Notes: generated by a model not told the origin, from the sequence alone. A stretch of 63,428 bases of DNA, filler included, from Nitrospinota bacterium (GCA_030620925.1; 13 parts of 13 records of this genome joined end to end with filler, not necessarily neighbours in it); one strand, 5' to 3'; shown: positions 6,299 through 34,054, counted from the first letter of the whole stretch. Made by a program: numbers and translations.

Positions 6299-6334
6299 GG
6301 GCGATCCCGCCTTCCGCGGGACGGTAGCCCCTAC
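6299..6334. repeat. GTAG-type REP carrying a 17-bp TCCCGC-N5-GCGGGA insert (6305..6321)
   Basis: GGGCGA-TCCCGCCTTCCGCGGGA-CGGTAGCCCCTAC. The insert is identical to 30939..30955. Confidence 0.75.
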
Positions 6335-8829
6335 CGGTTCATTATGCGGCGGATATCGGTAGGTCGCAGGGTTTCCATGAAGGTGTTTATGCTGTATGTG
6401 CGGCCGTCGGAGACGATGGTTACTGCGCCGTCCTTATACGTGAGGAATATTTCGATGTCCATCATATCGTAGGTGGAGATCACTTTGGGGTGTGGATGTT
6501 TTGAGCGGTTATACTTGCTGGCGCTTATGACCGCCACCTCCGGGCTGACAGCCGAGAGGAAGGGGAAGTATAAGGCGTTTCCGGCCCCGTGATGAGGTGC
6601 TTTGAGCACCGTGGCTTTGAGGTCCGCTCCCCCTTTGACGAGTTTCTTTTGCACCTGTCGCTCGATATCCCCCGGAAAAAGCACGCTGAAGTTCCCGTAG
6701 GTGAGCCGGATAACGACGGATGAGTTATTTTCGGATAGCCGATTTCCGATAAGTTGATGGCGGGCCGGCGGGTGGAGGACATCGATTTTAACGCCGTCTA
6801 TGAAACGGGTAGACATGCTGTCTTCTGCGGACAAACGCCTCATCAGCGGCGGAGCGGCGTGGTCTAAATCCCACCGGTCGAGGTACTTTTGCATTCCGTC
6901 TCCGTTATGCCACAGGTGTTCTACGCCGAAATCCCTGATCAGGGAGGGGGCTCCTCCGGCGTGATCCCGCTGGGCATGGGAGATGAGGAGGTAGTCGATA
7001 CGCCGGACGCCATGACTTCTCAAGTAGGGTGATACCACGATTTGCCCCGTGTCGCGTCCGCTCCTGAATGAAGGCCCGGTGTCGATGACCATGGTCCTGC
7101 CTCCGGGGAAGAACACCACCGCGGCGTCTCCTTCGCCCACGTCGAGAAAGGTGATCCGCAGCTTGCCGTCAGCGTGTGAGACGAGATAGGGTGCGCAGAA
7201 AGAGAGAATCAGGGCCGCGGAGGTAGCTGCCAAAAGCACATGAAAGCGGCCCCTTCTCCAGAAGTTAATGGTCAACGCCAGCAGGAAATAATAGGCCGCC
7301 GCCGCCGGCATCCAGGGGGTGAGGACTTTGAAGGAGAGAGGAGAGGCTTCCGCCACCAGGGAGGAGTTCTCCCTCAAGATGTAGCTCAGGAGGGATGAAA
7401 GGGCAAACAGGGGTCGGGCGGCGGTCTCGGAGACCATGTTCACCATGCTGGCCAGAAGCCCTGCCGGAACGAGCAGGGAGGAGGTAGGTATGGCCAGCAC
7501 GTTTACCGCCGGGGCGTTCAGGGATACTTCGTTAAAGCTTCGGGCGATTATGGGAGCTGTGGCCAGCGAGGCCACCACCGAAATCAGAACATAGGCCATG
7601 ATCTTTTGTTTCCAGACAGAGGGTTTAAGCAGTTTATCGGCCAGGCTGCCCTCAATGGCGAATTCAATCCTGGTTTTCTGTATATAGTGGATTATGAAGA
7701 AGGCAGCCAGGAAGGAGAGCTGAAACCCCATATCCAGTATGGAGAGCGGTTTCCAGACAAGTATTATCATTGCAGCGAGGGCAAGGGCGTTATACAGGTT
7801 TTTTTCCCGGTCGAGAAATCGGGCGCCCATATATGTGCAGACCATGATGGCGGCCCTGGTGGCCGATGGCCTGTCGCCGACCATGGCGGCGAAGGAAACT
7901 ACGGGGAAGATAGAGGCCAGGGCCGCCCATCTCCTGGCGTGGAAGGTGGTTCCCCGCAGTCTGATGGTTAACAGCATGACTCCCTTAAGCAGGAAGAGGA
8001 TGATGTAATATGAGGCGAGTGCGGCGAAACCCACGTGCAGGCCCGATATCGCCAGCAGGTGGGCGGTGCCGCTTCGGGAAAAATTTATGCGGTCAGATAG
8101 GTCAACCGCCCACGTTTCTCCGAGGATCATTGCCTTCAGTATTCCCGCCTCTCGTCCGGGGAGGTTTGTGTCTATGGCCGAGCTGCTCTGTTCCTTGAAA
8201 GAGTAGAGTGCGGAGAGGAAACCGCTGCCTTCTCCTCGGGCGATGATCTTCATCCCGCCGTCCTTCCAGAGGGTACCTGAGGCATAAATACCCCTCCTGG
8301 CCATGAAAGCCTGGTAATTGAACCCGCCCGGGTTCAGGTATCCGCGCAGCAAGCGCAACCTGAGGTTTTTGAAAATTATCCTGTCCCCGTATTGCAGGTC
8401 GAGCTCTGCCTTGTTTGTGATGATCCGGATATTACCTTCCGCGGGCATCCAGCGATTTTTCCGCTGAAGGGACACGGACTTGATGTATAGAGTGCTGTAA
8501 TGCCGTCTCTTCTCCACCGGCCTGGTTACGATCCCCTCAAGGGTTACCGGTTCCATGGGATGTTCTTTCGCCTGATTTACAATGTGCCGGGGCGGAAAGA
8601 AAGGGTGGGCGTGAAAGTTGAACATCACCGTTCCACACAACAACGGGACGGCATAAATCAACATAGTCCCCAGCTTCACTTTTCCCAGGCGCGCTAATGC
8701 TAGGGAAATGGCGGAAAAAGCTATAATAAAAATAAAGAAGGGTGCTAGAGAAGGGAGGAGGAAATATCCCAGGATGAGCCCTGTGAGGTATAGGAGGGCT
8801 GTTTTGCAAAGTCTATTTTTCACGGGCAT
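6331..8829 (-). CDS. comEC: DNA internalization competence protein ComEC/Rec2
   Basis: NPGGFNY, HLLAISGLHVG, GFQLSF, and a C-terminal metallo-beta-lactamase domain (FLDVGEGD, SHAQRDHAGG, PHHG). Confidence 0.95.
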   Translation of the reverse strand: MPVKNRLCKTALLYLTGLILGYFLLPSLAPFFIFIIAFSAISLALARLGKVKLGTMLIYAVPLLCGTVMFNFHAHPFFPPRHIVNQAKEHPMEPVTLEGIVTRPVEKRRHYSTLYIKSVSLQRKNRWMPAEGNIRIITNKAELDLQYGDRIIFKNLRLRLLRGYLNPGGFNYQAFMARRGIYASGTLWKDGGMKIIARGEGSGFLSALYSFKEQSSSAIDTNLPGREAGILKAMILGETWAVDLSDRINFSRSGTAHLLAISGLHVGFAALASYYIILFLLKGVMLLTIRLRGTTFHARRWAALASIFPVVSFAAMVGDRPSATRAAIMVCTYMGARFLDREKNLYNALALAAMIILVWKPLSILDMGFQLSFLAAFFIIHYIQKTRIEFAIEGSLADKLLKPSVWKQKIMAYVLISVVASLATAPIIARSFNEVSLNAPAVNVLAIPTSSLLVPAGLLASMVNMVSETAARPLFALSSLLSYILRENSSLVAEASPLSFKVLTPWMPAAAAYYFLLALTINFWRRGRFHVLLAATSAALILSFCAPYLVSHADGKLRITFLDVGEGDAAVVFFPGGRTMVIDTGPSFRSGRDTGQIVVSPYLRSHGVRRIDYLLISHAQRDHAGGAPSLIRDFGVEHLWHNGDGMQKYLDRWDLDHAAPPLMRRLSAEDSMSTRFIDGVKIDVLHPPARHQLIGNRLSENNSSVVIRLTYGNFSVLFPGDIERQVQKKLVKGGADLKATVLKAPHHGAGNALYFPFLSAVSPEVAVISASKYNRSKHPHPKVISTYDMMDIEIFLTYKDGAVTIVSDGRTYSINTFMETLRPTDIRRIMNR

Positions 8830-9120
8830 CTTAACCGTAGTTTTCCGGCGAGGTCTTTCCGGCCCGATTGATTATGAAATATCATGAACTTTGGCGGAAT
8901 TAGCTAATTAGAGGGCCTATATTATCATGAATATCGAATGAAAAACATAGTGTATATTATCTCAATTCGCTTATATTCCAATAATGGCGGTAGAACGCTG
9001 TGCATTAAGGGGTTTTTGTGTTATTATCCACTGGGAAACGGATAAAATGAGCTAATTCATCTGCCCTCTCTTATTTATGGAGAACGATGATACAGGAGTG
9101 ACCTGGAGGGTTATCGCTTT

Positions 9121-10893
9121 ATGACGCAACGGGAACTATGGCAGAGGACGCACTACTGCGGCGAGCTCAGAAAAGAGCATATAGAGCAAGAAGTAGTACT
9201 CAAGGGCTGGGTTCACAGCCGCAGGGACCATGGAGGAGTGATTTTTGTGGACCTGCGGGACAGGGAGGGTCTGGTGCAGGTGGTATTTAACCCCGAAATC
9301 CACGAGGCACCTCACGGCGAGGTGCGAAAGGTCAGGGATGAGTACGTGCTTGAGGTTAAAGGAAAGGTCAGGGCAAGGCCGGATGATGCGGCAAACCCTA
9401 ACCTGGCCACCGGCGAGGTGGAAGTGGTGGGAGCCGAACTGCGCATCCTGAACGAGTCCAAAGCTCTCCCCTTTTCCCTTAACAAGGAGATAGACGTCGG
9501 GGAGGATGTGCGCCTCAAATACCGCTATCTGGACCTGCGTCGTGAAGAGATGCAGAGCTATTTTCGTCTGCGTCATAACGTGTGCCTCTCGGTGAGAAAT
9601 TTTTTAAGCGGTCAGGGTTTCCTCGAGGTGGAAACCCCCATGCTTACCAAAAGCACGCCGGAGGGGGCAAGGGATTACCTGGTGCCCAGCAGGGTAAGCC
9701 CCAAAAAGTTTTACGCCCTGCCCCAATCCCCGCAACTGTTCAAGCAGATTCTCATGGTGTCCGGGTACGATCGCTATTTTCAGATAGTCAAATGTTTCAG
9801 GGACGAAGACTTGAGGGCCGACCGACAGCCGGAGTTCACGCAGATAGATATTGAGATGTCTTTCATCGAACAGGATGATCTGCTCCAGGTAATGGAGCAG
9901 ATGGTGGCCGAAATTTTCAGGGAGACCAAAGGGATTGAGCTTTCCTTGCCCTTCCCAAAGATGAGTTACCGGGAAGCAATGGATAAATACGGGGTGGATA
10001 ACCCCGATACCAGGTTCGGCCTGGAGATCAACGACGCCACGAAGCTCCTCTCGGAAGTGGAGTTCCCCCCCTTTAAGAAAGCGGTTGAAAACGGCGGCTC
10101 CATCAGAGGAATAAACATTGCGGGGTGTGCCTCCTTTTCCCGCAGAGAGCTGGATGAGCTGGCGGATTACGTCCAGGGGGAAGGCGGTGGGGGCCTCTAC
10201 TGGGTGAAGTGTACCGATCAGGGAGCCCAGTCACCCATAGGCAAGCATCTCCCCGAAGGCGCCATGGATGCCCTGCTGGCCCATTTCAAGGCCGGAGCCG
10301 GAGACCTGATTCTGATGGTGGCCGAGGGCGGGGATAAGGCCCTTCCCATCCTGGGGAAGCTGCGGCTCAAAATGGCGGATAGAGCGGGAATCATAGACCC
10401 GAAGGCTTACGCGTTCGTCTGGATCACAGAGTTCCCCCTGCTGGAGTACGACCAACAGGAAAAGCGGTACACAGCCGTCCACCATCCGTTCACCGCCCCC
10501 ATGGACGAGGACCTGGAACTGCTCGCCGGCGATCCGGGGGCGGCGAGGGCCAAGGCGCATGACCTTGTCCTAAACGGGAACGAGATAGGGGGAGGCAGTA
10601 TCAGAATACACCGCAGAGACGTGCAAAACAGGATATTCGAGATGCTGGGCATCGGCCCCGAGGAGAGCCTGATCAAATTCGGCTTCCTTCTTGAGGCCCT
10701 GGAATATGGCGCACCGCCGCACGGGGGCATCGCCTTCGGCCTGGATAGAATAGTAATGCTCTTAAGCGGTGCGAAATCCATCCGGGACATAATAGCCTTC
10801 CCCAAGACAAACCGCGCTATCTGCCTCATGACAGACGCCCCCTCTGAAGTCGATGAAGGCCAGTTGCGAGAGCTGAGCATAAAACTGATCTGA
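9121..10893 (+). CDS. aspS: Aspartate--tRNA ligase (probably the non-discriminating type)
   Basis: RTHYCG, RRDHGG (His typical of ND-AspRS), [45 protein letters not shown]. Confidence 0.97.
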
Positions 10894-10980
10894 TAAGTGA
10901 GGGATAAGCAGGCGGCTGGCGGCGCCTTCGACTGAGGACTAGAACCGAGCGGTTATAGCTCTATCCTTGCGGTGGTATCC

Positions 10981-11877
10981 ATGGGAGAAGACAAGCATAA
11001 ATCCGGTTTCCTGGCCATTATCGGCAGGCCCAACGTGGGGAAGTCGACCCTGATGAACAGGGTCATGGGGCGTAAAGTGTCCATAATTACGGATAAGCCC
11101 CAGACCACCAGGAACAGGATAGCGGGCGTCAAGAACTATAAAAACGGACAGATGGTGTTTCTGGATACGCCCGGAATCCACAGGGCCAAATCGCTCATAA
11201 ACCGGTACATGGTGAAAACGGCGCTGGATACTCTCAAAGAAGTCGACCTCTTGCTCTATATGACCGACGACAGGGCCGACGTTGAGGAAGACCGAAAGTA
11301 CGTTTTCCCCAGGCTGAAGGAGGCCGGTACCCCCGTTTTTCTGTTGATAAACAAGATAGACCTGATGAAAAAGGACGAGCTGCTCCCCCTCATGAACGCT
11401 TACAGCAAAGTCATGGATTTCAAGGAGCTTATACCGGTTTCCGCGCTCACGGGGGAAAACATGGAGCTGCTCCTTGACCTCTCCCTAAAGATGATGCTCG
11501 AAGGCCCGGCCTACTTTCCCGAGGATATGTACACCGATCAGCCCGAGGATTTCCTCATGTCCGAGCTGGTTAGGGAAAAAGCCATTAAACTGTGCAGGCA
11601 GGAGGTCCCTTATGCGGTGGCAGTGGTGGTGGAGAGAGTAGACCGCGCGGAGGGAGACCTCACCAGGGTCGAAGCCACCATCTATGTCGAGCGCGATTCA
11701 CAGAAGATGATCGTAATAGGTAAGGGGGGGGCCATGCTGAAGGAGATAGGAACCCGGGCCCGCAAGGAGATGGAGTGGATATTCGGGGAGAGGATGCACC
11801 TCAGCCTGTGGGTGAAGACGAAGAAACATTGGACAGATATTGACAGGTATATCAAAGAGTTCGGGCATTATCAATGA
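10981..11877 (+). CDS. era: GTPase Era
   Basis: GRPNVGKST, PQTTR, DTPG, NKID, and KH domain VIGKGG. Confidence 0.96.
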   Translation: MGEDKHKSGFLAIIGRPNVGKSTLMNRVMGRKVSIITDKPQTTRNRIAGVKNYKNGQMVFLDTPGIHRAKSLINRYMVKTALDTLKEVDLLLYMTDDRADVEEDRKYVFPRLKEAGTPVFLLINKIDLMKKDELLPLMNAYSKVMDFKELIPVSALTGENMELLLDLSLKMMLEGPAYFPEDMYTDQPEDFLMSELVREKAIKLCRQEVPYAVAVVVERVDRAEGDLTRVEATIYVERDSQKMIVIGKGGAMLKEIGTRARKEMEWIFGERMHLSLWVKTKKHWTDIDRYIKEFGHYQ

Positions 11878-11968
11878 AGCATCAGTTTAAGCTGACCCGG
11901 TCTTTTTGCGGGCGAATCCGTCCTCTGTGGCCCATAACCTGAAGCCGATCCGGCAAAGCCGAGCTATC

Positions 11969-12709
11969 ATGGCCCTGTATGATACTGAATCCATAGTGGT
12001 GAATACGATAGACCTTGGGGAAGCCGATCTCCTGGTAACCCTTTTCACCCGGGAATACGGCAAGATAAAGGCTGTCGCCAGGGGTGCTCGCATTTTGAAG
12101 AGCAGGTACAGCGGGTTCTTCCAGCCCCTCCTGGTTCTCAACACACTCTATTTCGGCAACGAGAGGCAGGAGCTCTACCGGATGGCCTCTATCGATCCGG
12201 TGAAAGTTTACGATATATCCTCCAGCATGGATAAGATGTTTACGGCCTTTTGCATGATGGAGGTGCTGGAACATTGCTGCGGACCGGGCGAAATCAACCT
12301 GCCTATGTACAGGCTGGCTCTGGAGGGAATAGAGCTGCTGGATAGCGGCGATCAGGGCCCGAATCTGGCGCTCTGCTTCGCCATGAGGGGGCTGTCTGTA
12401 GCCGGATATATGCCGCATCTCAAAGATTGCATAGCATGCGGGGGAGATTTGAGCGGCGATAAACTCAGGTTCAGCCCTTCCAGAGGGGGAGTGTTGTGCA
12501 ACCGATGTCTATCGGGGGCCGGGGAGCATTTCCCCATCTCCATGGGATGCCTGAAGTTCCTTGTCGCCACACTTGGGTTGGATTTAAAAAGGTCTAGCCG
12601 TATAAAGTTGAACCAAAACTTGAAGGAAGAAACCGGGAACATAATTTTCAACCATATTGCTTATAATCTGGGCAGGGAGATGAAGTCCCTGCGCTTCCTG
12701 GAATTGTAA
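11969..12709 (+). CDS. recO: DNA repair protein RecO
   Basis: GEADLLVTLFTREYGKIKAVARG, zinc motifs CIAC and CNRC. Follows era. Confidence 0.93.
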   Translation: MALYDTESIVVNTIDLGEADLLVTLFTREYGKIKAVARGARILKSRYSGFFQPLLVLNTLYFGNERQELYRMASIDPVKVYDISSSMDKMFTAFCMMEVLEHCCGPGEINLPMYRLALEGIELLDSGDQGPNLALCFAMRGLSVAGYMPHLKDCIACGGDLSGDKLRFSPSRGGVLCNRCLSGAGEHFPISMGCLKFLVATLGLDLKRSSRIKLNQNLKEETGNIIFNHIAYNLGREMKSLRFLEL

Positions 12710-12788
12710 TCAAACAGGTTTAATTATTTGTATGTCCGACAGAACTTAATCAAACTATATATTAATAAAAGACGTTTAATTTTTTTCG

Positions 12789-12816
12789 TTGACATTGAAG
12801 ACCAATAAGGTATACT
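12789..12816 (+). promoter_or_regulatory. Sigma70-like promoter for argS
   Basis: TTGACA-16nt-TATACT, 33 nt upstream of the GTG start. Confidence 0.65.
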
Positions 12817-12849
12817 TAAATTTCAGAAATAAAACAATGAGGGTGGGAG

Positions 12850-15273: not shown

Positions 15274-15274
15274 G

Positions 15275-15760: not shown

Positions 15761-15989
15761 AGGGCAGGCACAGGGGCCTGCCCCTACATGTCCCGCGGAA
15801 TGCGGTACTCAGAATGACAGAATGCGCAGTTAGGGGCATCCCGCATGCCGCGGGACCGTGCCCTTAATTAAAAAAATATCGTGTTTCTAATTAAACCCTA
15901 TTTCCCTACCACAAAAGCACTACGTAGGGGCGGTCCCGCGTGTGGCGGGATTAAACCCGGCCTATTGAGGCGTATCGCAATACGCTCCT
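15761..15989. repeat. Cluster of GTAG-type REP-like hairpins with three 17-bp inserts (15791, 15839, 15934)
   Basis: AGGGCAGGCACAGGGGCCTGCCCCTAC; AGGGGCA-insert-CCGTGCCCT; GTAGGGGCGG-insert-TTAAACCCG; GGCGTATCGCAATACGCTCC. Confidence 0.8.
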
Positions 15990-16937: not shown

Positions 16938-17044
16938 TCGCGCCTGAAGGCGCTCCTACAGCGGGTAGACAACATAGGCATCCCGCGGCACGCGGGTCGG
17001 AACAACGGCCGAAACAGTGTGTAGGAGCGGCATCCTGCCGCGAT
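16938..17044. repeat. Two REP copies flanking a 17-bp palindrome (16981..16997)
   Basis: TCGCGCCTGAAGGCGCTCCTAC ... TCCCGCGGCACGCGGGT ... GTAGGAGCGGCATCCTGCCGCGAT. Confidence 0.75.
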
Positions 17045-22449: not shown

Positions 22450-22667
22450 CTCGGGATGTCGCTCCTACCCACCAACGTAGTCCCGCGGAACGCGGGACAG
22501 GCGCGATAAGAGAAAAACGCATAAATAAACATCTGTAGAGACAATTCATGAATGGTCTCTACGCAACACGTTTTTTTCTTCAGAGGGCAGGCCTGCGGTC
22601 CGCGGGACAGGCGCGACCGTAGGGGCAGGTCTTGTGCCTGCCCAGGCGACCGACCGGTCACCCCTAC
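22450..22667. repeat. REP cluster with two 17-bp inserts (22481, 22591) and a near-perfect 28-bp palindrome (22535..22562)
   Basis: GTAG-TCCCGCGGAACGCGGGA-CAGGCGCGA; GTAGAGACAATTCATGAATGGTCTCTAC; GTAGGGGCAGGTCTTGTGCCTGCCC; GGCGACCGACCGGTCACCCCTAC. The contig ends inside the cluster. Confidence 0.8.
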
Positions 22668-22767
22668 NNNNNNNNNNNNNNNNNNNNNNNNNNNNNNNNN
22701 NNNNNNNNNNNTTAATTAATTAANNNNNNNNNNNNNNNNNNNNNNNNNNNNNNNNNNNNNNNNNNNN
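22668..22767. other. Artificial contig linker
   Basis: N44-TTAATTAATTAA-N44. Confidence 0.99.
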
Positions 22768-23839
22768 ACACGGTGCAGGTACTGTTGATGCGCACGGTCC
22801 TGGTCGAGTTCAACGACAGGGGGCCAAGCTCGTGCAGACCGATGTTCAGCTCATCGGCGATATATCCCAGGTATCGACCGCAGCCTGCAGCGCAACGGTC
22901 GTTCATCTGAAAACTCTTGACTATTCCGTGTTCGTCCACCTGGATGGCCTTGGTGTCCTGGCCCCCGATATCCAGCACAGTCCTGGTGTCGGGGAACATG
23001 TAGTGTGCTCCCAGACCGTGGCAGAGAATCTCTGAGCGAATCTGGTCTTTCCTGAAGGGAAGCCGCTGACGCCCGTAGCCGGTACCTACGGTGTTCTCCA
23101 AGGGAAGACCCTCGGGGGATATTTCGCCAACATGGTTATCATGAGAAGATTCCCCTGAACCGTTGTCCAGGTTATTCATCAGTTCTTTCACCTTTTCCGC
23201 CGCCCCGTCGCCCGCCAGCTCAGGCTCTCGACTCAAGGTAAATTCCAGGGTGTCTATGACGCGCTCCTGGAAGCCGCTCTCCCTTATCTGGTTCTCCACT
23301 TTTATGATTGACTTGTCGTAGATGCCCATTAACTCCTCGAAACTGGGCCCCTCTGCTCTGCCTTCGCTATCAGCCAATCGCAGGAACTCCGAGCCGACGA
23401 TATCCCTGAAAAACTGAGAACGCTCCATGCTCTCTGTGGAGAAGAGCTGTAAGGAGCGTTCCTCCAGCGCCTGGAAAATGGACTCCAGCGCGGCGCGGGT
23501 TTCATCCAGGCGAGGGCCTGTTTTGGTTCCTTCAGATAGCTGGAAGCAGTTTTCTTTGAGGCTCTTCAGTTTATCCACCTGCTGCAGGTAGCCGAAATCG
23601 GCTTCGAGAGCATCGAAGAGCTCTCCCAAACCGGCGGAAGAACCGTCCTCCGTTCCCGCCTGCCTGCGCAGGAGATAGAAGCGAGCGTTGTTCATGGCCT
23701 CATCGCCCGCCACTCTGGTGGCTACCTTGTAGTTGCTTCGGGTGTTTGTTATGCCCCGGCCGATCATCTGCTCGCGGTCGTCCATGACCACCGCTTTGGT
23801 GGTCGTGGAGCCCAGGTCTATACCAAGATAGTAACCCAT
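22768..23839 (-). CDS. bcrA: Benzoyl-CoA reductase ATPase subunit A (BcrA/BadF), 3'-truncated
   Basis: GIDLGSTTTKAV, GRGITNTRSNY, GTGYGR, SEILCHGLGA, LDIGGQDTK, MNDRCAAGCGRYL. Confidence 0.92.
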
Positions 23840-25122
23840 CAGTGCGCTCCTAATTTGCGTTTCTGGTCTATCATCTGAAGATAAGATTCCAGACGGTTCT
23901 TTATGTTGGCGTGGGAAAAATAGCGGGAGTCTACCAGGTCGGACTCGATGAAACCGCCCGGAATGCCCGTCCTCTGTTCCAGCTCCCTCATCATCAGGAG
24001 CTGCCCGGCCGAGAAGGAGTTGCAGCTCTTGATGGAATTGATTATGAACCCGTCAGCGCTGTATTCGTTTATATATTTCTCGATGAGGTTTATCCTCTCG
24101 GGAATGCTCAGGTTGGTGTATACGCCCAGACAGTACCGGGCCAGGGACTCCAGCGGCTTATCCGGATCGTGCCGGAAACCCAGATCGTATACTCCGCCCA
24201 CTTTTGTGTAGGTGGAGACGACGGGGACGGCACCTTCGTCGTAGAACATCTTCCAGAAATCCCTGAAACTGGTCCAGTTGGGGGGACCTTCCACCACCAG
24301 GCGGTATTTTTCCAGGGCCAGCATGCCTTCGGGCGTCGTGGGCCCCTCTTTCCTTTCTATCCTGCCCTCTATCTCACGGCGAAGCTCCTGATAGTATTCG
24401 ACGCACTCTCTGGTGCCCCTGAACGCGGTGAATATGGGGCCTATGTAATAGACGCCCGCGAAGTAGCCGTCTATGGGCGAGGGGATGTTCTTCCCGGCTT
24501 CCAGGGCATACACGAAATCTTCCTCAGCCTCGGCGGATCGGGCCAGGTATTCTCTGAGTTTCCCCTCGTCGTACTTGTTCCCGGAAACTCTCTCCAACAG
24601 CGGAATGACTTCCCGCTCCATCTGGCCCACCATATATTCCACCATCTGCGTAGTGATGTGTCCGTCACCCTGATAAGGGGTGTGCAGCATGGCCACGGGA
24701 GCCTCGTAAAGATTGCCCAGGTTCTCGAACCACTTCATGAAGGTGAAGCACCCCGTGTAGCTCAACAGGAGCAGGTCGGGCGGAGGCACCTTTTCGCCTG
24801 TGGGACCCTCGTTACCGGCGAGCATCATCCCGATGTCGCACTTCACGTAGGTGCAAACGTCCTCGGAGTGGCCGATCTTTTCTGATTCACGGATGAACTC
24901 GTCCGACCTCTTGCGCATGCCCGACTGGAGGGCGTTGATCTCGGGGTAGACGGGTATCATGCCCATGGAGAGGATGAGTTCGGTAAGGTTCCCGGGGACA
25001 AAGGTATAGACCACCTTCTTCCCTTCCTGTCCGGCGCAGCTCAGTCGTTGGAAATAATCCCCCAGCATCTCTTTCTGTTTAACCATACTGGGTTCTTTCT
25101 GTACGTCTTGCCCGGTGCTCAT
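23839..25122 (-). CDS. bcrB: Benzoyl-CoA reductase subunit B (BcrB/BadE)
   Basis: YTFVPGNLTEL, EINALQSGMRK, HSEDVCTYVK, YTGCFTFMKWFE, NSIKSCNSFSAGQ. Confidence 0.92.
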   Translation of the reverse strand: MSTGQDVQKEPSMVKQKEMLGDYFQRLSCAGQEGKKVVYTFVPGNLTELILSMGMIPVYPEINALQSGMRKRSDEFIRESEKIGHSEDVCTYVKCDIGMMLAGNEGPTGEKVPPPDLLLLSYTGCFTFMKWFENLGNLYEAPVAMLHTPYQGDGHITTQMVEYMVGQMEREVIPLLERVSGNKYDEGKLREYLARSAEAEEDFVYALEAGKNIPSPIDGYFAGVYYIGPIFTAFRGTRECVEYYQELRREIEGRIERKEGPTTPEGMLALEKYRLVVEGPPNWTSFRDFWKMFYDEGAVPVVSTYTKVGGVYDLGFRHDPDKPLESLARYCLGVYTNLSIPERINLIEKYINEYSADGFIINSIKSCNSFSAGQLLMMRELEQRTGIPGGFIESDLVDSRYFSHANIKNRLESYLQMIDQKRKLGAH

Positions 25123-26144
25123 GTTGCGCTCCAGAGTTTGATGGAATCTGAGAAGGTGCCCGTCTGCTCCCGGATGACCTGGAACTGCCCCAGGTTCTCG
25201 GCGTACTGAAAGCCGGTATGGGGGATGCCTTCCTCATCGAGGGTCTTGATGAATTCCGGCCGGTCGAGCAGCGTGGGGTCGCAGAAACTTGGGCAGGCGA
25301 AGATAACACCGTCCGCACGGCGGTGGTGCACGGTCTCCAACAGCAGCTTCCCCTTGGGATTCCCCGCTTCATATTTAGCGGAGGAATATGTGCTGTTCTC
25401 AATGAAGGCACCGGCCAGGGCGGATATGGGGTCTCCTTCAGTATCAACGTCCTGGAGTAGCCAGCGATGGCCCAGCATGAAATCATCATCCACTATATAG
25501 CAGCCTGCATTCTCCAACGTCTTGATAAGGCCCAGGGGAGGCTGTTCGCAGAAGGCGCCCACCAGCACCACCCGCACGTTATCCATCTCCTTGCGGTCCA
25601 TGCCTTCGATCCCTTCCAGATAATCCTCCAGGAGGGCGTTGTGGTCTTCGACGCTCAGGATGTTGCCTGCCCTGGCCAATAGATAGGTTTCGTAAGTAGG
25701 CACCAGCCAGGGCTTTTGGCTGCGCAGGTCGTACAGCGTGTTCATCAGGCGCCGGTTTACGTTGTATACTTCGATGGCGGCGCGCATGGAGTCGTCGCTT
25801 ATTGCGCCGCCGCCCATTTTCTCCAAATCTTCCTTGAAGCTGTGCAGCTCCTTGATGTAAAACTCGCCGCCCACAGCGGGGTCGAAATTCTGTGGAAAAT
25901 CAAAGTACTTGGCATACTTGCCGGGGAACATCACCTGCCACATCCCGGAAAGGTTGCGGATGACATCGCAGATGGAGGGGAAGAGCATTCCGTCCAGGCA
26001 GTCGAGCCTGCCTGCCAGCCCCAACTCGATCACGCTGCGAGGGATATGACAGATATAGGACTGGTAATAGGCGTCCCCTTTTATTATCTCCACCAGGTCT
26101 CCGCCGCCCATGACGCCCACGGGAAGCATGCCCCCGGCATGGAT
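25119..26144 (-). CDS. bcrC: Benzoyl-CoA reductase subunit C (BcrC/BadD), 5'-truncated
   Basis: GDAYYQSYICHIPRS, FPSICDVIRNLSGMW, FCEQPP, PSFCDP, EQTGTFSDSIKLW. Confidence 0.92.
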   Translation of the reverse strand: MHAGGMLPVGVMGGGDLVEIIKGDAYYQSYICHIPRSVIELGLAGRLDCLDGMLFPSICDVIRNLSGMWQVMFPGKYAKYFDFPQNFDPAVGGEFYIKELHSFKEDLEKMGGGAISDDSMRAAIEVYNVNRRLMNTLYDLRSQKPWLVPTYETYLLARAGNILSVEDHNALLEDYLEGIEGMDRKEMDNVRVVLVGAFCEQPPLGLIKTLENAGCYIVDDDFMLGHRWLLQDVDTEGDPISALAGAFIENSTYSSAKYEAGNPKGKLLLETVHHRRADGVIFACPSFCDPTLLDRPEFIKTLDEEGIPHTGFQYAENLGQFQVIREQTGTFSDSIKLWSAT

Positions 26145-26634: not shown

Positions 26635-26833
26635 TAGGTTTTATAACACCCTCGAAATGAGTATCTCCAATGCATGTTTACATTTACTGATATACGCTGG
26701 AATAGTGGAATTTCTTCCATAGAGCACTTTGAAAAAGAGGCGTGTCTGCAATAATTCTGGCTGATTGTCCGGGGAGTGTTTGACCAACGTCGCGCCTGTT
26801 CCGCGTTCCGCGGGATTGTCCAAGGGTTTTTTT

Positions 26834-26950
26834 GTAGAGACAATTCATGAATTGTCTCTACAAGTGGTTGTACTTTAACATGTTGCTCTGGTTACTAGAG
26901 TCTCCCTCCCTTGACGGGAGGGTGATCAAGGGCGACCGCCAGTCGCCCCT
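26834..26950 (+). repeat. Composite repeat, left copy (inverted partner at 30929..31069)
   Basis: Perfect palindrome GTAGAGACAATTCATGAATTGTCTCTAC, shared non-palindromic spacer, CCCTCCC hairpin, then GGGCGACCGCCAGTCGCCCCT. Confidence 0.85.
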
Positions 26951-27137: not shown

Positions 27138-27171
27138 GGATATTTCTTTTCGGTGTCGATTGTCGTTCAGA

Positions 27172-27612: not shown

Positions 27613-27710
27613 CTCGTTTCTCCTTAAAGTTGAATTAATATTTTTTCATGCCTTTTTGTTTCCGGCTATTTTATTCAAGATAGATGGCATAAGCCGTCAC
27701 TTATAATTTC

Positions 27711-27738
27711 GTATCGGGAGCGGCATCGACTTTCTTGA
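27711..27738 (-). promoter_or_regulatory. Sigma28(FliA)-like promoter, copy 2
   Basis: Minus strand TCAAG-15nt-CCCGATAC. Confidence 0.4.
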
Positions 27739-27937
27739 GGAGTTTTATACCATATCCGGAATGAGCATCTCCATAAATATTATAGACGTTCAACTGGTGA
27801 AATTTCTTTAACAGAATACTTTAAAATCGCTGCGCTCATGCTATAATTCTGGCTGATTGTCCAGGGGGAAGTTCATCTGCTGTGGTATGGCAACGGCTGA
27901 AAAGCTTCATCGAATATCACGTTAAGGGAAGGGAAAG

Positions 27938-30139
27938 ATGATTGAGAGAAATTCTCCACAGGGGGAGGTCGAGATAATCAACACCGGCTGATCGCACGAC
28001 TGCGGAGGGCGGTGCGTCCTCAGGGTGCATATTAGAGACGGAGTAATCGAGCGCATTGAAACCGATGCCGACGACGAGGAGCAGTTTCGGGCCTGTCTGC
28101 GGGGCCGCTCCTACCGGCAGCGGCTCTACCATCGCGACAGGCTCATCTACCCCTTGCGCCGCACGGGAGAGCGGGGCGAGGGCAAGTTCGAGCGCATCTC
28201 CTGGGATGAAGCCCTGGGCGCCATCGCCTCGGAGTTGAAGCGGGTAAAAGAGACTTATGGCAACCAGTCCATCTTCTACATAGGTTATTCCGGCGGGCAC
28301 GGCCAGCTCCACGGCATGCGCGCGGCTTACCGCCTGCTCAACAAGTTCGGCGGCTGCACTAAAACCTGGGGCGGCGCATCGCATGAAGGGGGCATCTTCG
28401 CTTCCATGGCTACCTACGGCACCTTGAGCACGGGCAACACCCGCGACGACCTGCCCAACTCAAAGCTCATCATCATGTGGGGGTGGAACCCGGCGGAGAC
28501 CATCTGGGACACCAACACCTCCCTCCGTCTCGCAGAAGCCAAAGAGAAAGGGACGCGCATAGTTTCCGTAGACCCCAGGCTCACCTCTTCCACGGCCACT
28601 TTCGCCCATAAGTGGATACCCATAAAACCCTGCACCGATACGGCGGCCCTCATCGCCATGACCTACGTAATAATAGATGGAGGTCTCTACGATGAGAAGT
28701 TCCTCGATCGATACACTGTGGGCTTCGATAGATACAGGGCCTACGTCATGGGCGAGGAGGACGGCCTGCCCAAAACCCCCCGCTGGGCGGAGGAAATCTG
28801 CGGCGTGCCCGCCGGTACATTCGAGCAGCTGGCTCGAGATTACGCAACCGCCAAACCAGCGGCGTTAATAGCCGGCTGGGGACCCGGGCGCACCGCATAC
28901 GGCGAGCAGTACCACCGGGCGGCCATGGTCCTGGCGGCCATGACCGGCAACATAGGTATCCACGGCGGGAACGCCGCCGGCTTCGAGCGCAGCTACGGCA
29001 GCCGCAACATGCACGGTTTCTCGGCGGGCAAGAACCCGCTGGAAGTGGACGGCCCGGTGCGTAAAGACGCCCTCATGCTACGCGGAGGGACGACCTCAAC
29101 GGCGGTTCGTGTGCACGTATCCAGAATCTGGGATGCCATGCTTAAGGGCCGAAGCGGGGGCTATCCGGCGGACTACAAGCTCCTCTATGTAACCAACGCC
29201 AACCCCCTTAACCAGTTCCCGCATACCAACAAGGGCGTGGAAGCGATCAGGAAGATGGAATTCGTGGTGGTACACGAGCAGTTCATGACCGCCACCGCAA
29301 GGTATGCCGACATCCTCTTGCCGGTGAACACCATCATGGAACGCAACGACATCGCCCAGCCCTGGCTCTCGGCTCCTTACTATATATATCTGAACAAGGT
29401 GGTGGAATCCGTGGGGGAATCCAAGACCGATTTTCAGATTTCCTCGGAGCTGGCCCCTCACCTGGGAGTGGACGATTACAGCGACCTGGACGAGGAGGGC
29501 TGGCTCAGGAAATCGGTTGAAAGTTCGGAGGATATCGAGGACTACGATGAGTTTAAAAAAGCGGGTAAACATGTCGTCAAACTTCCCGAACCCTACGTCT
29601 CTTTCGAGGCCCAGATAGAGGACCCGGAGAAAAATCCGTTTTCCACCCCTTCGGGCAAGATAGAGATATACTCCGAGCTGCTGGCGGATATGGAGAACCC
29701 CCTCATACCTCCCGTGCCCAAGTATATAGAGCCGGAGGAGGGGCCTGATGATCCCCTCCGGGGGGAGTTCCCATTGCAGCTCATCACCACCCATTTCAGA
29801 CGGCGCGTTCATTCCGTCTTCGAAAACGTCCCCTGGCTGGCGGAGCTTGAGCCGGACGCGATGTGGATCAATCCAGTCGACGCCGAGCCCAGGGGGATAA
29901 AGGAAGGCGACCCGGTGAAGATATTCAACCAGCGGGGTACGGTGGTGATGCCGGCAAGGGTCACCGAGAGGATAATCCCCGGCGTGGTGAACATACACGA
30001 GGGCGCCTGGTTCAGCCCGGACAGCGAGGGGGTGGACAGGGGCGGCTGCGCAAACGTGCTCACCGCTGATAAACACTCCCCCGGCGGAGCATTCATCAGC
30101 AATACCAGCCTGGTGCAGGTAGAGAAGGAAGAAACTTGA
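27938..30139 (+). CDS. Molybdopterin oxidoreductase catalytic subunit (DmsA-like) with in-frame TGA at codon 18, candidate selenoprotein
   Basis: ATG 27938 after AAGGGAAGGGAAAG is in frame with ORF 28025 and gives MIERNSPQGEVEIINTG-[TGA]-SHDCGGRC...RACLRG. Also WG.NP.ET, VDPR, TATARYADILLP, TPSGKIEIYSE. No Tat signal. Confidence 0.9.
27989..28022 (+). promoter_or_regulatory. Candidate bacterial SECIS hairpin after the in-frame UGA
   Basis: UGA-U-CGCAC-GAC-UGC-GGAGG-GCG-GUGCG-UCC-UCA: a stem with a bulge and a G-led apical loop, folded by eye only. Confidence 0.45.
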
Positions 30140-30230
30140 CTCGGGGAGCGGGCCCCCTTTCTTCCCGGAAAAACGTATTAGATATTAAAGGCTTTTACCG
30201 CAGCGGTTTACATGATAAGGAGATTTCACT

Positions 30231-30767
30231 ATGCAGATGACCTTCCACTTCAACCAGCAGCGATGCACTTCTTGTTACACCTGCGTGGTGGCCTGCAAAG
30301 ACTGGTTCGATATCCCGCCGGGACCCCGCACGCGGCGCTGGGTGAGCACACTGGAAGAGGGCAAGTTCCCCGACGTGGAGGTCAGCCACCTCTCGCTTTC
30401 CTGTCTCCACTGCGAAAACCCTTCCTGCATCAGCGTCTGCCCGTCAGGCGCCATTAAGAAGAGGGAAAGCGACGGCATCGTTTACGCCGATAGAGATGAA
30501 TGCCTCGCCGACTGCGGCCTCTGCAAGGAAGCCTGTCCCTACGATGCCCCCCGCTTCGATGAAGAGGGCGACACAACAATCGAGTTGTGCGATTTCTGCG
30601 TGGAGCGTATAGATGAAGGTAAAAAGCCCATCTGCGTGGAAGCCTGCCCCATGCGCGCCCTGGATTGCGGGCCCAGGGAAGAGATGGAGTCGGAATACGG
30701 CGAAAAGAAAGATGCCAGAGGCTTCTCCTACGTGGAGGAGAACCGCCCGTCCATAGTATTCAAGTAG
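30231..30767 (+). CDS. Four-cluster iron-sulfur subunit (DmsB-like)
   Basis: CTSCYTCVVAC, CLHCENPSCISVCP, CLADCGLCKEACP, CDFC...PICVEACP. AAGGAG RBS. Confidence 0.93.
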   Translation: MQMTFHFNQQRCTSCYTCVVACKDWFDIPPGPRTRRWVSTLEEGKFPDVEVSHLSLSCLHCENPSCISVCPSGAIKKRESDGIVYADRDECLADCGLCKEACPYDAPRFDEEGDTTIELCDFCVERIDEGKKPICVEACPMRALDCGPREEMESEYGEKKDARGFSYVEENRPSIVFK

Positions 30768-31160
30768 GGGCGTATTGCCATGCGCCCCAATAGGGCGGGT
30801 TTGATCCCGCCACATGCGGGGTTGCCCTTTCATTCCAGAATCGTAGGGGCAGGGCTTGCCTTGCCCAGGGCGCAGTCTAACGGCACGCTGTGCCCCCCTA
30901 CGCGAAATTGCTGGGGGCGTTGGGTGTCGTAGGGGCGATCCCGCCTTCCGCGGGACTCGCCCTTAATCACCCTCCCTTTTTCCCTCCCATCGAGGGAGGG
31001 AGACTCCAGTAACCTGAGTAACATGTAAAGTACAACCACTCGTAGAGACAATTCATGAATTGTCTCTACTTACGCGATGGTCTTTTGTTAGCGGCACGGC
31101 TCGTCGTATCGCTACACCGCGTCCTGTCATTCTGAATCCCGCCACACGCGGGGTCGCCCT
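30764..31160. repeat. Dense REP cluster including the right copy of the composite repeat (30929..31069) and three 17-bp inserts (30805, 30939, 31137)
   Basis: Several GTAGGGGC...GCCC hairpins, and a perfect 28-bp palindrome at 31042..31069. Confidence 0.85.
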
Positions 31161-31266
31161 TTTTTCGCTTCAGGGCGTTTTCTGTTGAAAAGTAAGAGCG
31201 TAATCTGTATAAATAGACACTGTCCCTGCTATGGATTCCTCAATATAAAAGGAGAGGAGTGAAGAA

Positions 31267-32478
31267 ATGGATTTCAATTTGTCGCCTGAAGAAGAGGCAT
31301 TCAGACAAGAGTTTGTACCCTGGCTGGAGGGTGTTATTGCCGAAAAAGGCAAGATACCAACATTCAAAGATGCAGAGGCCCTCGATGAGAGAGTGGCCTG
31401 GTACAGGGAGATGCAGAAGAAACTGTTCGATGCAGGCTATGCGGGCATCACCTGGCCCAAGGAATACGGTGGCCGGGGGGGCACCCTCATCGAAAGCTTC
31501 ATATTGGACGAGGAGATTCAGAAGCGGGCTGCTGTTGAGAATTTCAACGGCATCGGGTTCGGGATGGCGGGCGGCGTTATTCTTGCCTTCGGCACGGATG
31601 AGCAGAAAGATCGCTATATCCCGGCCATGCTTAACGGGAGCGAGATATGGTGTCAGGGTTTTTCAGAGCCCAACGCCGGCTCGGACCTCGCTGCGCTCAG
31701 CACTCGCGCCGTGAAAGACGGGGACGATTACGTCATCAACGGCCAGAAAGTTTGGACCAGCATGGCGCAAATGGCCGACCAGTGCATCCTGGTGGTGAGG
31801 ACGGACCCCGACGTGCCCAAGCACAAAGGGTTGAGCTTTTTCATAATCGACATGAAAACCCCGGGCATAGACGTCAGGCCGCTGGTCCAGATAACCGGCG
31901 ACGCCGAGTTCAATGAAGTCTATTTCGATGATATGCGCGTTCCCCGGACTCAGATGCTGGGCGAGGAGGGGGACGGCTGGAAGATTTCCATCGCCACCCT
32001 CATGTTCGAGCGTTACGCAGTGAGCCAGTACGGGAGCTTCAGGCGCAGCATCGACGGGCTTTTCGAGTTAGCCAAAAATGTGACACGCAACGGGCGGCCC
32101 GCCATCGAGGACCCGGTCATCCGCCAGAAATTGGGGCAGTTTCACATCGAAGTGGAGATTCTTAAGCACAACACCATGAGGAGTCGCAGCAAACTGTTGA
32201 AGGGCGAGGTGCCCGGTCCGGAGGGTTCCATAGAAAAGCTTTACTGGAGCGAAATGAACAAGGCCATGCAGGAGTTCGCCATGGAGCTGGAAGGCCCCTA
32301 TCACCAGCTTATGAGCGGTTCTAAATGGGCGCTGCAGGATGGAATGTACCAGTTCGCCTTCCTCAGATCGCGTGGGAACACTATAGAAGCGGGAACCTCC
32401 GAGATACAGAAGAACATCATCGGAGAAAGAGTTTTGGGCCTGCCCAAAGACGCCGCCAGAGCTGCTGTTAAAAAGTAG
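31267..32478 (+). CDS. Acyl-CoA dehydrogenase family protein, first of a pair
   Basis: WCQGFSEPNAGSDLA, NGQKVWTS, FNEVYFDD, TIEAGTSEIQKNII. Confidence 0.94.
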   Translation: MDFNLSPEEEAFRQEFVPWLEGVIAEKGKIPTFKDAEALDERVAWYREMQKKLFDAGYAGITWPKEYGGRGGTLIESFILDEEIQKRAAVENFNGIGFGMAGGVILAFGTDEQKDRYIPAMLNGSEIWCQGFSEPNAGSDLAALSTRAVKDGDDYVINGQKVWTSMAQMADQCILVVRTDPDVPKHKGLSFFIIDMKTPGIDVRPLVQITGDAEFNEVYFDDMRVPRTQMLGEEGDGWKISIATLMFERYAVSQYGSFRRSIDGLFELAKNVTRNGRPAIEDPVIRQKLGQFHIEVEILKHNTMRSRSKLLKGEVPGPEGSIEKLYWSEMNKAMQEFAMELEGPYHQLMSGSKWALQDGMYQFAFLRSRGNTIEAGTSEIQKNIIGERVLGLPKDAARAAVKK

Positions 32479-32509
32479 CCAGGGATATTTGGAATAGGGA
32501 GAGCTGACA

Positions 32510-33658
32510 ATGGTAGATACGGCTTTTACAGAAGAACAAGATATGCTCAAGCGCTCAGCGCGCAACTTTGTTGAGAACGAGTGTCCGCCCGAGTACGTGC
32601 GTGAAATGTGGGAAAACGATGAGGGCATCACCCAGGAGGTCTGGAACAAGATGGCCGAGCTGGGCTGGATGGGCCTGCTGGTTCCGGAAGAGTATGACGG
32701 CATCGGCATGTCCTTCCAGGACCTGGCGGTGGTTTTTGAAGAAATGGGCCGGGTGCCGATGCCTGGCCCCTTCTTCTCATCGGTGGTCCTGGGCGGCGAG
32801 ACCATAAGACTGGCGGGCACCGAAGAACAGAAAAAGGCTGTCCTGCCCGGTATTGCCATGGGCGAAACGAGAGCCACTTTAGCCCTCATGGAGTGCGACC
32901 CGCTGCTCTCGCCGGCGGGAATCGAATCCGTTAAGGCCGAACCCGCCGCCGACGGCTACGCCATCAACGGCATCAAGCTCTTCGTGCCCGATGCCCACAC
33001 AGCGGATTATATCATCTGCGCCGCAAGGACGGATGAGGGGGCGGATCCCGCTAAAGGGATATCGCTGTTTCTGGTCGATTCCAAGACAAGCGGCCTGTCC
33101 ATCGAGCTTCTCAAGACGATGGACGGGGGCAGGAAGCAGTGTGAGGTGAATTTTGAGAACGTGGCCGTTCCCGAAAGCGCTCTCATGGGGCAGAAGGGAG
33201 AGGCATGGCCCATTATCTCCAAGGTGGCGGATATCGCCAACGCCGCCCTCTGTATGGAGATGGTGGGCGGGATGGAAAAATCTCTGGAGCTGACCGTGGA
33301 CTATGCCAAGACTCGCATCGCCTTCGATCAGCCCATCGGGAGCTACCAGGCCATAAAGCATATGTGCGCCGATATGATGCTCATTACTGAGAGCGCCAAG
33401 TCCGTCGCTTATTACGCCGCCTGGGCGGTGAGCGAAGATACGCCCGATGCACCAGAGGCCGTTTCCATGGCCAAAGCATACTGTAGTGACACTTACCGCA
33501 AAGCCACGGGCGATTGCATTCAGATTATGGGCGGTATCGGATTCACCTGGGAACACGATGCGCATCTCTACTTCAAGCGAGCAAGATGCAACGAGCACCT
33601 CTTCGGAGACGCCGCCTTTCACAAGGACCGACTGGTTACGATGAAAACGAGCGCCTGA
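32510..33658 (+). CDS. Acyl-CoA dehydrogenase family protein, second of a pair
   Basis: MAELGWMGL, GIKLFVPD, FDQPIGSYQAIKH, GGIGFTWEHDAHLYFKRA. Confidence 0.94.
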   Translation: MVDTAFTEEQDMLKRSARNFVENECPPEYVREMWENDEGITQEVWNKMAELGWMGLLVPEEYDGIGMSFQDLAVVFEEMGRVPMPGPFFSSVVLGGETIRLAGTEEQKKAVLPGIAMGETRATLALMECDPLLSPAGIESVKAEPAADGYAINGIKLFVPDAHTADYIICAARTDEGADPAKGISLFLVDSKTSGLSIELLKTMDGGRKQCEVNFENVAVPESALMGQKGEAWPIISKVADIANAALCMEMVGGMEKSLELTVDYAKTRIAFDQPIGSYQAIKHMCADMMLITESAKSVAYYAAWAVSEDTPDAPEAVSMAKAYCSDTYRKATGDCIQIMGGIGFTWEHDAHLYFKRARCNEHLFGDAAFHKDRLVTMKTSA

Positions 33659-33776
33659 AACTTTCTGACTATAGCTGCACCTTGTTATGGGGGGAGCCAT
33701 CCTTTTTTATGAAGAAGGAGCTCCCCCCAAGCATTTTGTCGGCCCGTGAAGAGCTCGGGGGCCATCTGCTTTCGCT

Positions 33777-34054
33777 GTAGGGGCGGTCCCGCGGTATGCG
33801 GGATTAAACCCGCCCTGTAATGATGATTATATGTAAAGGGCAGGTTTGAAACCTGCCCCTACGAGATGGGTATATGCGTTCATTGGTTTTCGTGCGTGGA
33901 AGGTGAAAAGGAACGGGGTGTAGGAGCGCCTTCCAGGCGCGATCCCGCGTTTCGGGGGATTTGTAGAGGCGAATCTCGTATTCGCCCAGGGCGATCACAA
34001 GGATCGCCCCTACTTGTAGAGACAATTCATGTCCCGCCCTGCTGGACGTCTCTA
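33777..34054. repeat. REP cluster with inserts at 33787, 33943 and a degenerate one at 34032
   Basis: GTAGGGGCGG-insert-TTAAACCCGCCCT; AGGGCAGGTTTGAAACCTGCCCCTAC; GTAGGAGCGCCTTCCAGGCGCGA; GGGCGATCACAAGGATCGCCCCTAC. Confidence 0.85.

Follow-up and report, generated by a model that had tools for sequence, protein, structure and literature searches.

The 63,428-base stretch of Nitrospinota DNA examined here (the window; 13 short contigs, C208-C220, joined by N spacers) and the genome to which it belongs carry many copies of a 17-base hairpin, TCCCGC-N5-GCGGGA, designated the module, that occupies the tips of many unrelated hairpin repeats in place of host bases. We tentatively take the module to be a minimal hairpin of the repetitive extragenic palindromic (REP) type that was copied as a unit into host hairpin tips by an agent of the RAYT/TnpA_REP type, and was then amplified together with its hosts, a reading to which we give slightly less than an even chance. 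The genome (G000) is a metagenome bin of 445 contigs and 2.50 Mb (54% GC, median contig 4.4 kb, shortest contig 2516 bases), estimated as 89.5% complete with 3.55% contamination, and the window stretch recurs in public runs, mainly marine and sediment metagenomes, of 12 studies. The sole other genome of the phylum in the comparison set (G001, the sister genome below) is from the same family and another genus.

The module, pointed out in a first-pass annotation of the window, is far more frequent than chance predicts. There are 6 exact matches in the window versus 0.01 expected, a number reached in none of 100 shuffles, and 14 matches versus 0.32 expected when one mismatch is allowed. Genome-wide there are 81 exact copies and 1 copy of the reversed pattern that served as the control. 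Among all hairpins of the genome that have a 6-bp stem and a loop of 3-7 bases, TCCCGC-N5-GCGGGA is the commonest, followed by CCCCGC-N5-GCGGGG with 41 copies. The core that these share, CCCGC-N5-GCGGG, is present 167 times (reversed control 4), with a closing pair that is T-A in 81 copies, C-G in 41 and mixed or other in 45. Conservation covers the 5 bp of this core (CCCGC/GCGGG) and a closing pair, T-A or C-G. The loop is free to vary and has 43 different sequences in the 81 exact copies; loops of 3 and 4 bases occur too. The intergenic location reported earlier for the window copies holds across the genome, as 65 of the 81 exact copies are outside a coding mask (greedy open reading frames (ORFs) of at least 100 aa) that covers 85% of the sequence, versus 1001 of 1234 occurrences (81%) of the half-site TCCCGC that are inside it. 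At 17 bp, the module is slightly under the usual size range of REPs (palindromes of 20-40 bp, high in copy number and mainly intergenic) and otherwise fits this profile. A connection to restriction-site avoidance was dropped, CCCGC not being rare (4718 occurrences per strand), and matches to GTCCCGC-N5-GCGGGAC at at least 119 loci, one match each, in 2.9 million viral contigs are uninformative.

Host families were identified by searching the whole genome for the 10 bases to the left and 10 bases to the right of each copy, with at most one mismatch in each and at most 45 bases between them. At least ten families of hairpin repeats have a majority empty form and a minority filled form, the latter with the module in place of 3-10 host bases beside the host loop. 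With the replaced bases in square brackets, these include F2, GGGGCGG[GTT]T.AAACCCGC, with 32 empty copies; F3, a 28-bp palindrome, ACAATTCATG[AAT]TGTCTCTACA, with 35 (exact flanks); F1, TCATTCTGAG[CGAAG]CGAAGAATCT, with 26; F7a, GCAGGCACGA[GAC]CTGCCCCTAC, with 10+2; F7b, GGCAGGGCAA[GCC]CT.CCCCTAC, with 6; F8, GTAGGGGCGA[ATC]TTGTATTCGC, with 4; and F9, GGGGCGACCG[CCGG or GCCGG]TCGCCCC, with 5. Strict flanks recover only 2-3 empty copies of F4, CGCGG[CAAGA]TGCCGCTCCT, and 2 of F5, in which GTAG is followed by the replaced GAGCGCCTTC and then CAGGCGCGA, each from a family of ~33 copies. The number of filled copies per host ranges from 1 to ~13. The replaced bases are always at the tip of the host hairpin, beginning at or within the host loop and reaching 1-10 bases into one of the arms. 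In F2, F3 and F9, the empty form is a perfect palindrome, and the bases that are lost on filling are there paired with the opposite arm; the empty form is therefore the older state. Additional hosts in the cluster listing include GGGCGATCA-[module]-CT.GCCCCTAC, CCCAGGGCGCGG-[module]-CGCCCCTAC, two CCCTCC-type repeats, with 11 copies each, for which no clear empty form was found, and an A/T-rich repeat in which TTTGGAAAAA is followed by the replaced GGGTTCCC and then TCAAACTCC. One copy, at C15:6737, is within an ORF, in a 33-base tandem repeat, where it replaces TCCTG with a net gain of 12 bases and preservation of the frame. This ORF (C15:6500-7000, locus L026) has three tandem 33-base units (EVGVLKPRGR-like), the third of which, with the in-frame module, reads EVGVPRVAGKPRGR.

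The contrasts between empty and filled sites from which the first-pass annotation had argued were all read back from the window. An intact GTAGGAGCGCCTTCCAGGCGCGA at 33920 and 52655 stands against GTAG-[module]-CAGGCGCGA at 22477, and GGGCGACCGCCAGTCGCCCCT at 26930 against GTAGGGGCGA-[module]-CTCGCCC at 30939; the 28-bp palindrome is intact at 26834 and 31042 and interrupted at 34016, and one type of host has the loop GTGTG at 15934 and GGTAT at 33787. The loss of host bases on filling was also borne out, at 3-10 bases.

The module is not tied to one junction. By their 8+8-nt flanks, 80 copies form 33 clusters, the largest with 17% of the copies; the largest-cluster share of other hairpin cores is 97% for F2, 89% for F3, 86% for F6, 79% for F4, 61% for F5 and 53% for F7. 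Descent of all filled copies from one ancestral junction, an outcome that the first-pass annotation had named as fatal to its proposal, is contradicted by these 33 contexts and the many distinct junctions. When flanks of 14+14 bases are used, 207 core hairpins with loops of 3-5 bases fall into 141 clusters, 118 of them singletons, although some of the singletons have probably arisen by chance, mainly hairpins within genes that have short loops and closing pairs of other kinds. Loops of the types CTTCC/GGAAG and CTGCC/GGCAG are found in at least 6 different hosts, and the loop therefore travels with the arms. At ~10 sites, including 15791 and 31137 in the window, the module joins diverse left-hand elements to the right half of F1 (YTCAGAATGACAGG), which suggests exchange at the module itself.

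Many copies are also placed in register with the GTAG tetranucleotide of REPs. Counted from a same-strand GTAG, the module begins at +0 (15 copies), +5 (10), +6 (16), +7 (3) or +9 (4), and 7 copies at +12 are mostly on the far side of symmetric hosts. GTAG abuts 15 of 206 copies and is 5-7 bases away, as part of the host REP, in 29 more; most copies have none. Where it abuts GTAG, the module is therefore also the stem-loop of an ordinary-looking REP, and GTAG-[module]-CAGGCGCGA is a family of its own, with junction 12-mers that occur 16 times. Throughout the GTAGGGGC superfamily (F2, F7, F8, F9 and others), the module follows GTAGGGGCNN and is itself followed by the host loop and the complete other arm, so that the inner part of the GTAG-side arm is what is lost. 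In 35 copies, GTAG is present on just one side; read on the GTAG strand, the asymmetric loops are G..G in 16 of these and C..C in 4, and 13 more loops are G..C and hence uninformative. As copies within a family are not independent, a fixed polarity of the loop relative to GTAG is only suggested by these numbers.

The reported lack of a target-site duplication is correct for nine of the ten junction classes, the exception being a sub-class of F1, F1-B. In F1-B (C187:4267, C260:4430, C41:8607, C271:27 and C127:4132), the module is located between direct pentamers, CTCCG..CTCCG or with one mismatch; at C187:4267, the right flank is instead the inverted left flank, which generates a long perfect palindrome. 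The module is not a miniature inverted-repeat transposable element (70-300 bp, with terminal inverted repeats and a target-site duplication), given its 17 bp and the absence of a duplication in nine of ten classes. An integron attC-like insertion at GTT is ruled out by replaced triplets that vary with the host (GTT, AAT, GAC, GCC and ATC).

Comparison with the sister genome places the hosts before the spread of the module. F2 copies at up to 2 mismatches number 27 in the sister genome versus 48 in the window's genome, and F3 copies at up to 3 mismatches 21 versus 22, whereas the core hairpin, with 20 copies (reversed control 6), is ~8-fold less frequent there and the exact module has 7 copies (control 0). 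Similar numbers of hosts with far fewer modules mean that the hosts are older than the module expansion. Judged from these two genomes, the hosts predate the split of the two genera, and the module was either present by the time of the split or has been shared since, with an expansion that is specific to the window's lineage. One plain F2-filled copy is present in the sister genome (L022), with the organization TAGGGGCGA-(module TCCCGCGTATCGCGGGA)-TGAAACCCGCCCC.

Given the state of the bin, the nested arrangement could in principle be an assembly or binning artefact, with contigs fused through short repeats or contributed by contaminants. Fragmentation and contamination are as given above, and 19 of the 81 exact copies are within 300 bases of a contig end versus 10.7% expected. 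However, any assembly word is longer than the module and its flanks together, the sister genome also has a filled F2 copy, and contigs assembled in other studies span filled sites. This was established with the Logan contigs of four runs (X1, X5, X6 and X7), the uncovered parts being uninformative. The site at 33787 is filled, with the loop GGTAC, in contigs from three other studies (X1 record 7, X6 record 24 and X7 record 32), and X7 record 32 spans 33726-34338 with 12 differences and 0 gaps. We therefore consider an artefact very improbable. The sole differences between populations within the module are in the loop, 33797 T>C in three runs and 30815 T>C in X1 and X6. At both sites, and these are two sites only, the window has T as the final base of the loop where the contigs from other studies have C, a pattern that fits a C-to-T change in an exposed loop.

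Arms that are conserved around a loop that is free are also what might be expected of a functional site, bound by a dimeric protein or acting as a structural signal in RNA or DNA, with the abundance of the module explained by selection on its carriers. The 43 loops in 81 exact copies, the loop substitutions at 33797 and 30815 and the co-variation of the closing pair (T-A in 81 copies, C-G in 41) agree with such a role. By a hand count, the loop of F2-filled copies differs ~5 times more per site than do the arms or the host flanks; this rapid change agrees with such a role too, and it also explains the diversity of loops without many independent origins. Selection cannot, however, make identical 12-base arms in unrelated repeats, and a copying step would still be required. 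An intrinsic terminator is ruled out, as a run of four or more T within 10 bases follows only 1 of 80 T/A-type and 7 of 41 C/G-type copies; no Rfam family was matched in the window, and no regulator or partner gene is linked to the module. Selection for a function as the reason for the abundance is, overall, improbable.

How copying into hairpin tips might proceed is suggested by the position of the replaced bases, for in a REP folded on single-stranded DNA the tip is the only part that is single-stranded. A unit of ~15-19 bases would be copied into the single-stranded tip of a pre-existing hairpin repeat, the targets being several GTAG-tagged classes of REP, the F1 repeat, the CCCTCC-type repeats and, once, a coding tandem repeat. 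In each event, the module would take the place of the 3-10 host bases that separate the host loop from a fixed point in one arm, and filled variants would then be amplified along with their host families. The likeliest agent would be an HUH nuclease-ligase of the RAYT/TnpA_REP type, the machinery that processes folded single-stranded REPs, which might cut twice, within or beside the exposed loop of the host, and ligate the module strand into place; the fixed offset from GTAG and the likely polarity fit an agent of this type. The passage through single-stranded DNA, the enzyme and the direction of each individual event are inferred. A stronger form of this proposal, in which the hairpin of 15-19 bases is itself the unit of single-strand cutting and joining, written into folded tips at a set distance from GTAG with excision of the host bases, is possible but distinctly less probable. 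If true, the module would be the smallest mobile DNA known, and such tip replacement would be a mode of REP evolution outside the described pathways of transposition.

RAYT-like genes accompany the hosts in the sister genome, which has four matches to PF01797. A REPtron at L007:1-3001 has a RAYT-like ORF (1214-1682, minus strand) with REPs of the F5 (TCGCGCCTGGAAGGCGCTCCTAC) and F4 (GTAGGAGCGGCATCCTGCCGCGA) types on both sides, and the RAYT-like gene at L005 is flanked by a GGGGCGGCATCTTGCCGCCCC REP. The F4 and F5 hosts are therefore true RAYT-associated REPs in this family. A third locus, L006:244-795, has a RAYT-like ORF that ends in ..VGATGGSPV.. and has a GGGGC..GCCCCTAC REP (C449:508-527) inside it, so that REP sequence seems to be both within and at the end of this transposase gene. 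This feature is known for one subclass of RAYTs (PMC6006769).

Several observations weigh against enzymatic copying into hairpin tips. The first-pass annotation had proposed a RAYT/HUH nuclease or a templated insertion enzyme as the agent and had looked to the genes flanked by the motif to reveal it, but neither lead was substantiated. The window's genome has no match to Y1_Tnp/RAYT (PF01797), no relative in it was found with a RAYT-like protein of the sister genome as the query and, in this 89%-complete and fragmented bin, there is also no match to RVT_1, the TnpB zinc ribbon or the IS110 transposase. The assembly could easily lack a small gene located between REPs, and with 89% completeness and a contig cut-off of 2.5 kb, a missing RAYT is weak evidence either way. 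The genes located between pairs of modules (spacings of 250-3500 bases) are ordinary housekeeping genes, with no REPtron-like arrangement, and none of the RAYT-like genes of the sister genome is flanked by the module, their flanks being host REPs instead. Junction dinucleotides lack a common CT/CA cleavage signature and there is no shared target motif. To our knowledge, HUH transposition inserts DNA without loss of target bases; replacement of host bases needs two cuts, which are here putative. Enclosure of the module in a larger hairpin exceeds the controls only weakly, with at least 6 enclosing pairs in 79 of 142 cases versus 45.8 with swapped flanks and 56 with shuffled flanks, and no weight is placed on it.

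The filled copies themselves add to this. Within one host, they mostly share one junction and often one loop type: 6 of the 13 filled F2 copies have the loop CACAC, and the 5 filled F3 copies have the junction CATG/module/TGTCTC, the loop being 3 bases long in four of these. Amplified filled variants therefore account for most of the copy number, and independent acquisitions number roughly 10-15, of the order of the number of junction classes and not 80. Writing by replacement, as proposed in the first-pass annotation, accordingly stands in so far as the module is separable, the empty form is in the majority and host bases are lost, and has to be qualified as to the number of events and as to F2, F4 and F11. 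In these three families, the host bases to the left of the module are GCGG, as in the right arm of the module, so that replacement is there indistinguishable from a 15-base insertion with a short flanking repeat, and the repeat also fits homology-assisted copying. An event number this modest could be supplied by rare accidents. Contigs from other studies likewise have the module at 33787, 33943 and 34032, which means that the events are not recent, and the polymorphism between filled and empty sites that had been envisaged did not emerge, with no clean case in the Logan contigs of the four runs. An X5 contig and a loose end from X7 do continue after 30804 with AACCCG(CCCCTACG), an empty F2, and were not counted because the matched side is the repeated F6-F2 unit and may be from another locus. 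In JGI metagenome contigs, a query with the acyl-CoA dehydrogenase gene next to the module site found only relatives of at most 44% identity, which offer no orthologous empty sites for comparison.

These same features are accommodated by the main alternative, which dispenses with dedicated mobility, namely rare template switching at a stalled REP, or short-homology repair of a broken tip, with the chimeras then amplified normally; we regard this as doubtful, though well worth weighing. In the template-switching version, a polymerase that stalls at a folded REP would move to another hairpin, one already equipped with the GC-rich tip, and return at the host loop. One junction shared per host, the age of the events and the absence of an enzyme from the searches of the window's genome are all as this would predict, as is a deletion that always runs from within one arm to the host loop, as if synthesis had resumed on the exposed loop. 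Microhomologies of 2-5 bases are also present, the GCGG of F2, F4 and F11 and, in F8 and F9, a host TC after a module that starts with TC. In contrast, the junctions of F3 (CATG/TGTC), F1 (TGAG/CGAA) and F7 (CGA/CTG) offer no usable homology, at least 10-15 host classes have gained the same tip when no other hairpin core in this genome is comparably promiscuous, and the sister genome, with the same hosts and kinds of hairpin, shows almost no spread of the module. The spacer variants (AATAG-like and AGTTG) between F6 and F2 upstream of filled F2 copies also exist among empty copies, a hint that F2 was filled more than once or that its copies have exchanged sequence.

All 14 copies listed for the window in the first-pass annotation are present where it had placed them, on five contigs (C210, C211, C212, C213 and C215); 6 are exact, 6 have one mismatch and 2, at 22591 and 34032, are degenerate. 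The exact copy at 6305-6321 (loop CTTCC) is in a GGGGCNA..CGGTNGCCCCTAC REP of the F9 type and clusters with C187:1877 and C271:9418. A one-mismatch copy at 15791-15807 marks the joint of a REP end (..GCCCCTACATG) and the right half of F1 (CTCAGAATGACAG), a mosaic that recurs at C154:2040. It is followed by exact copies at 15839-15855 (loop ATGCC), inside TTAGGGGCA..CCGTGCCC, and 15934-15950 (loop GTGTG), in F2 (GTAGGGGCGG-[module]-TTAAACCCGG), and by a one-mismatch copy at 16981-16997 in a unique context. The exact copy at 22481-22497 (loop GGAAC), between GTAG and CAGGCGCGA, is both F5-filled and a REP in its own right; the degenerate copy at 22591-22607, with the left arm GCCTGC, also precedes CAGGCGCGA, and the one-mismatch copy at 26799-26815, which follows TCGCGCCTG, is F5-filled in the opposite orientation. 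Empty hosts nearby are an intact F3 palindrome, GTAGAGACAATTCATGAATTGTCTCTAC, at 26834-26861 and the F9-type GGGCGACCGCCAGTCGCCCCT at 26930-26950.

Further along the window, a one-mismatch copy at 30805-30821 (loop CACAT) is in F2 (GGGCGGGTTTGA-[module]), an exact copy at 30939-30955 (loop CTTCC) has the CTCGCCC junction given above, an empty F3 with its 28-bp palindrome intact is at 31042-31069 and a one-mismatch copy at 31137-31153 (loop CACAC) follows GTCATTCTGAA, half of F1. The exact copy at 33787-33803 (loop GGTAT) has F2 as its host. An empty F5, GTAGGAGCGCCTTCCAGGCGCGA, is at 33920-33942 on the plus strand, with its second copy at 52655-52677, and the one-mismatch copy at 33943-33959 abuts the 3' end of this intact F5 and is not nested in it, so that adjacency to an F5 REP as well as nesting occurs among copies of the module. 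A filled F3 at 34016-34058, GTAGAGACAATTCATG-[degenerate module 34032-34048]-TCTCTA, has lost AAT, and its junction is present in 5 other copies. Two more one-mismatch matches, at 10138 and 58551, each fall within an ORF and appear fortuitous.

The gene content of the window is ordinary and includes genes for ComEC, aspartyl-tRNA synthetase, a GatA-like amidase, class I benzoyl-CoA reductase subunits, an enzyme of the dimethyl sulfoxide (DMSO) reductase family and pimeloyl-CoA-dehydrogenase-like proteins. The genes for subunits A, B and C of the class I (ATP-dependent type) benzoyl-CoA reductase, at 22712-26129, and the pimeloyl-CoA-dehydrogenase-like genes, at 31267-33658, point to anaerobic degradation of aromatic compounds in this little-known phylum. 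Elsewhere in the genome, a phage capsid gene (PF13252, E 1.2e-57) is located between two copies of the module at C129:3759-4763 (L018:1160-2164) and may be part of a prophage.

Among known systems, REPs with GTAG are similar to the module in being short, GC-rich, intergenic hairpins, high in copy number and variable in the loop; 15 module copies directly follow GTAG and, by the parts of the account of Di Nocera et al. (2013, PMC3733652) that bear on this, the hosts of the module are typical GTAG REPs. The module differs in that most copies have no adjacent GTAG and are inside the stems or loops of other REPs with loss of host bases, in its 33 contexts among 80 copies and in that no cognate RAYT or REPtron was found in the window's genome. 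As described in the sections of Corneloup et al. (2021, PMC8266576) on its activity, TnpA_REP binds folded single-stranded REPs, reads GTAG, and cuts and rejoins strands in vitro. The relevant part of Di Nocera et al. (2013) also describes REPs inside small palindromes and, in hundreds of copies, degenerate REP units joined to unrelated stem-loops, without explanation. REPINs, on the evidence of the pertinent passages in Bertels and Rainey (2011, PMC3116915), are non-autonomous hairpin repeats that form populations within genomes and are suggested to be building blocks of complex repeats; a REPIN is, however, an inverted pair of REPs that moves as a doublet, whereas the module is a single hairpin nested in other elements. 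A literature search, to which the supplements of REP papers were external, found no description of the module, of tip replacement or of the insertion of one hairpin into another.

The statement in the first-pass annotation that no described mechanism was known for such an element needs to be softened, since tiny nested modules, in cyanobacteria, and insertion into REP loops have both been published. IS1397 and similar insertion sequences reportedly target REP loops, as full elements with a transposase gene and target duplications. The loop or center of a REP hairpin as the target of insertion is common to IS1397 and the module, but the latter consists of a 17-base hairpin that has no gene and, for the most part, no duplication. 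The small dispersed repeats (SDRs) described by Elhai and colleagues in 2008 are said to be 21-27 bases long, to occur in diverse contexts with a shared secondary structure and to have been proposed as the smallest mobile elements, reportedly with an RNA intermediate. Passages that cite this work place SDR5 between bases 3 and 4 of the highly iterated palindrome HIP1 and note reports of SDRs only in Nostocaceae (PMC5861425, PMC4390886). By this description, which supplies the definition used here, the module is similar to an SDR in being precisely embedded in several kinds of repeat (at least 10 host classes), and differs in its 17 bases, in its presence in a candidate phylum unrelated to Nostocaceae, in targeting hairpin tips and in the loss of host bases.

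New features are the 17-base size, the fact that host bases are replaced, the number of different hosts within a single genome, the regular spacing from GTAG and the lineage. The series of before-and-after states in at least ten hosts, with junctions exact to the base, tells where strands were cut and joined and can be converted into oligonucleotide substrates for assays of cleavage and strand transfer by RAYTs. If the module was indeed copied as a unit, the known size limit for DNA copied into new sites would be lowered, with hairpin tips as the target, in a scarcely studied candidate phylum from marine sediment. The closest precedent for a tiny module nested in other repeats is provided by the SDR families of Nostocaceae.

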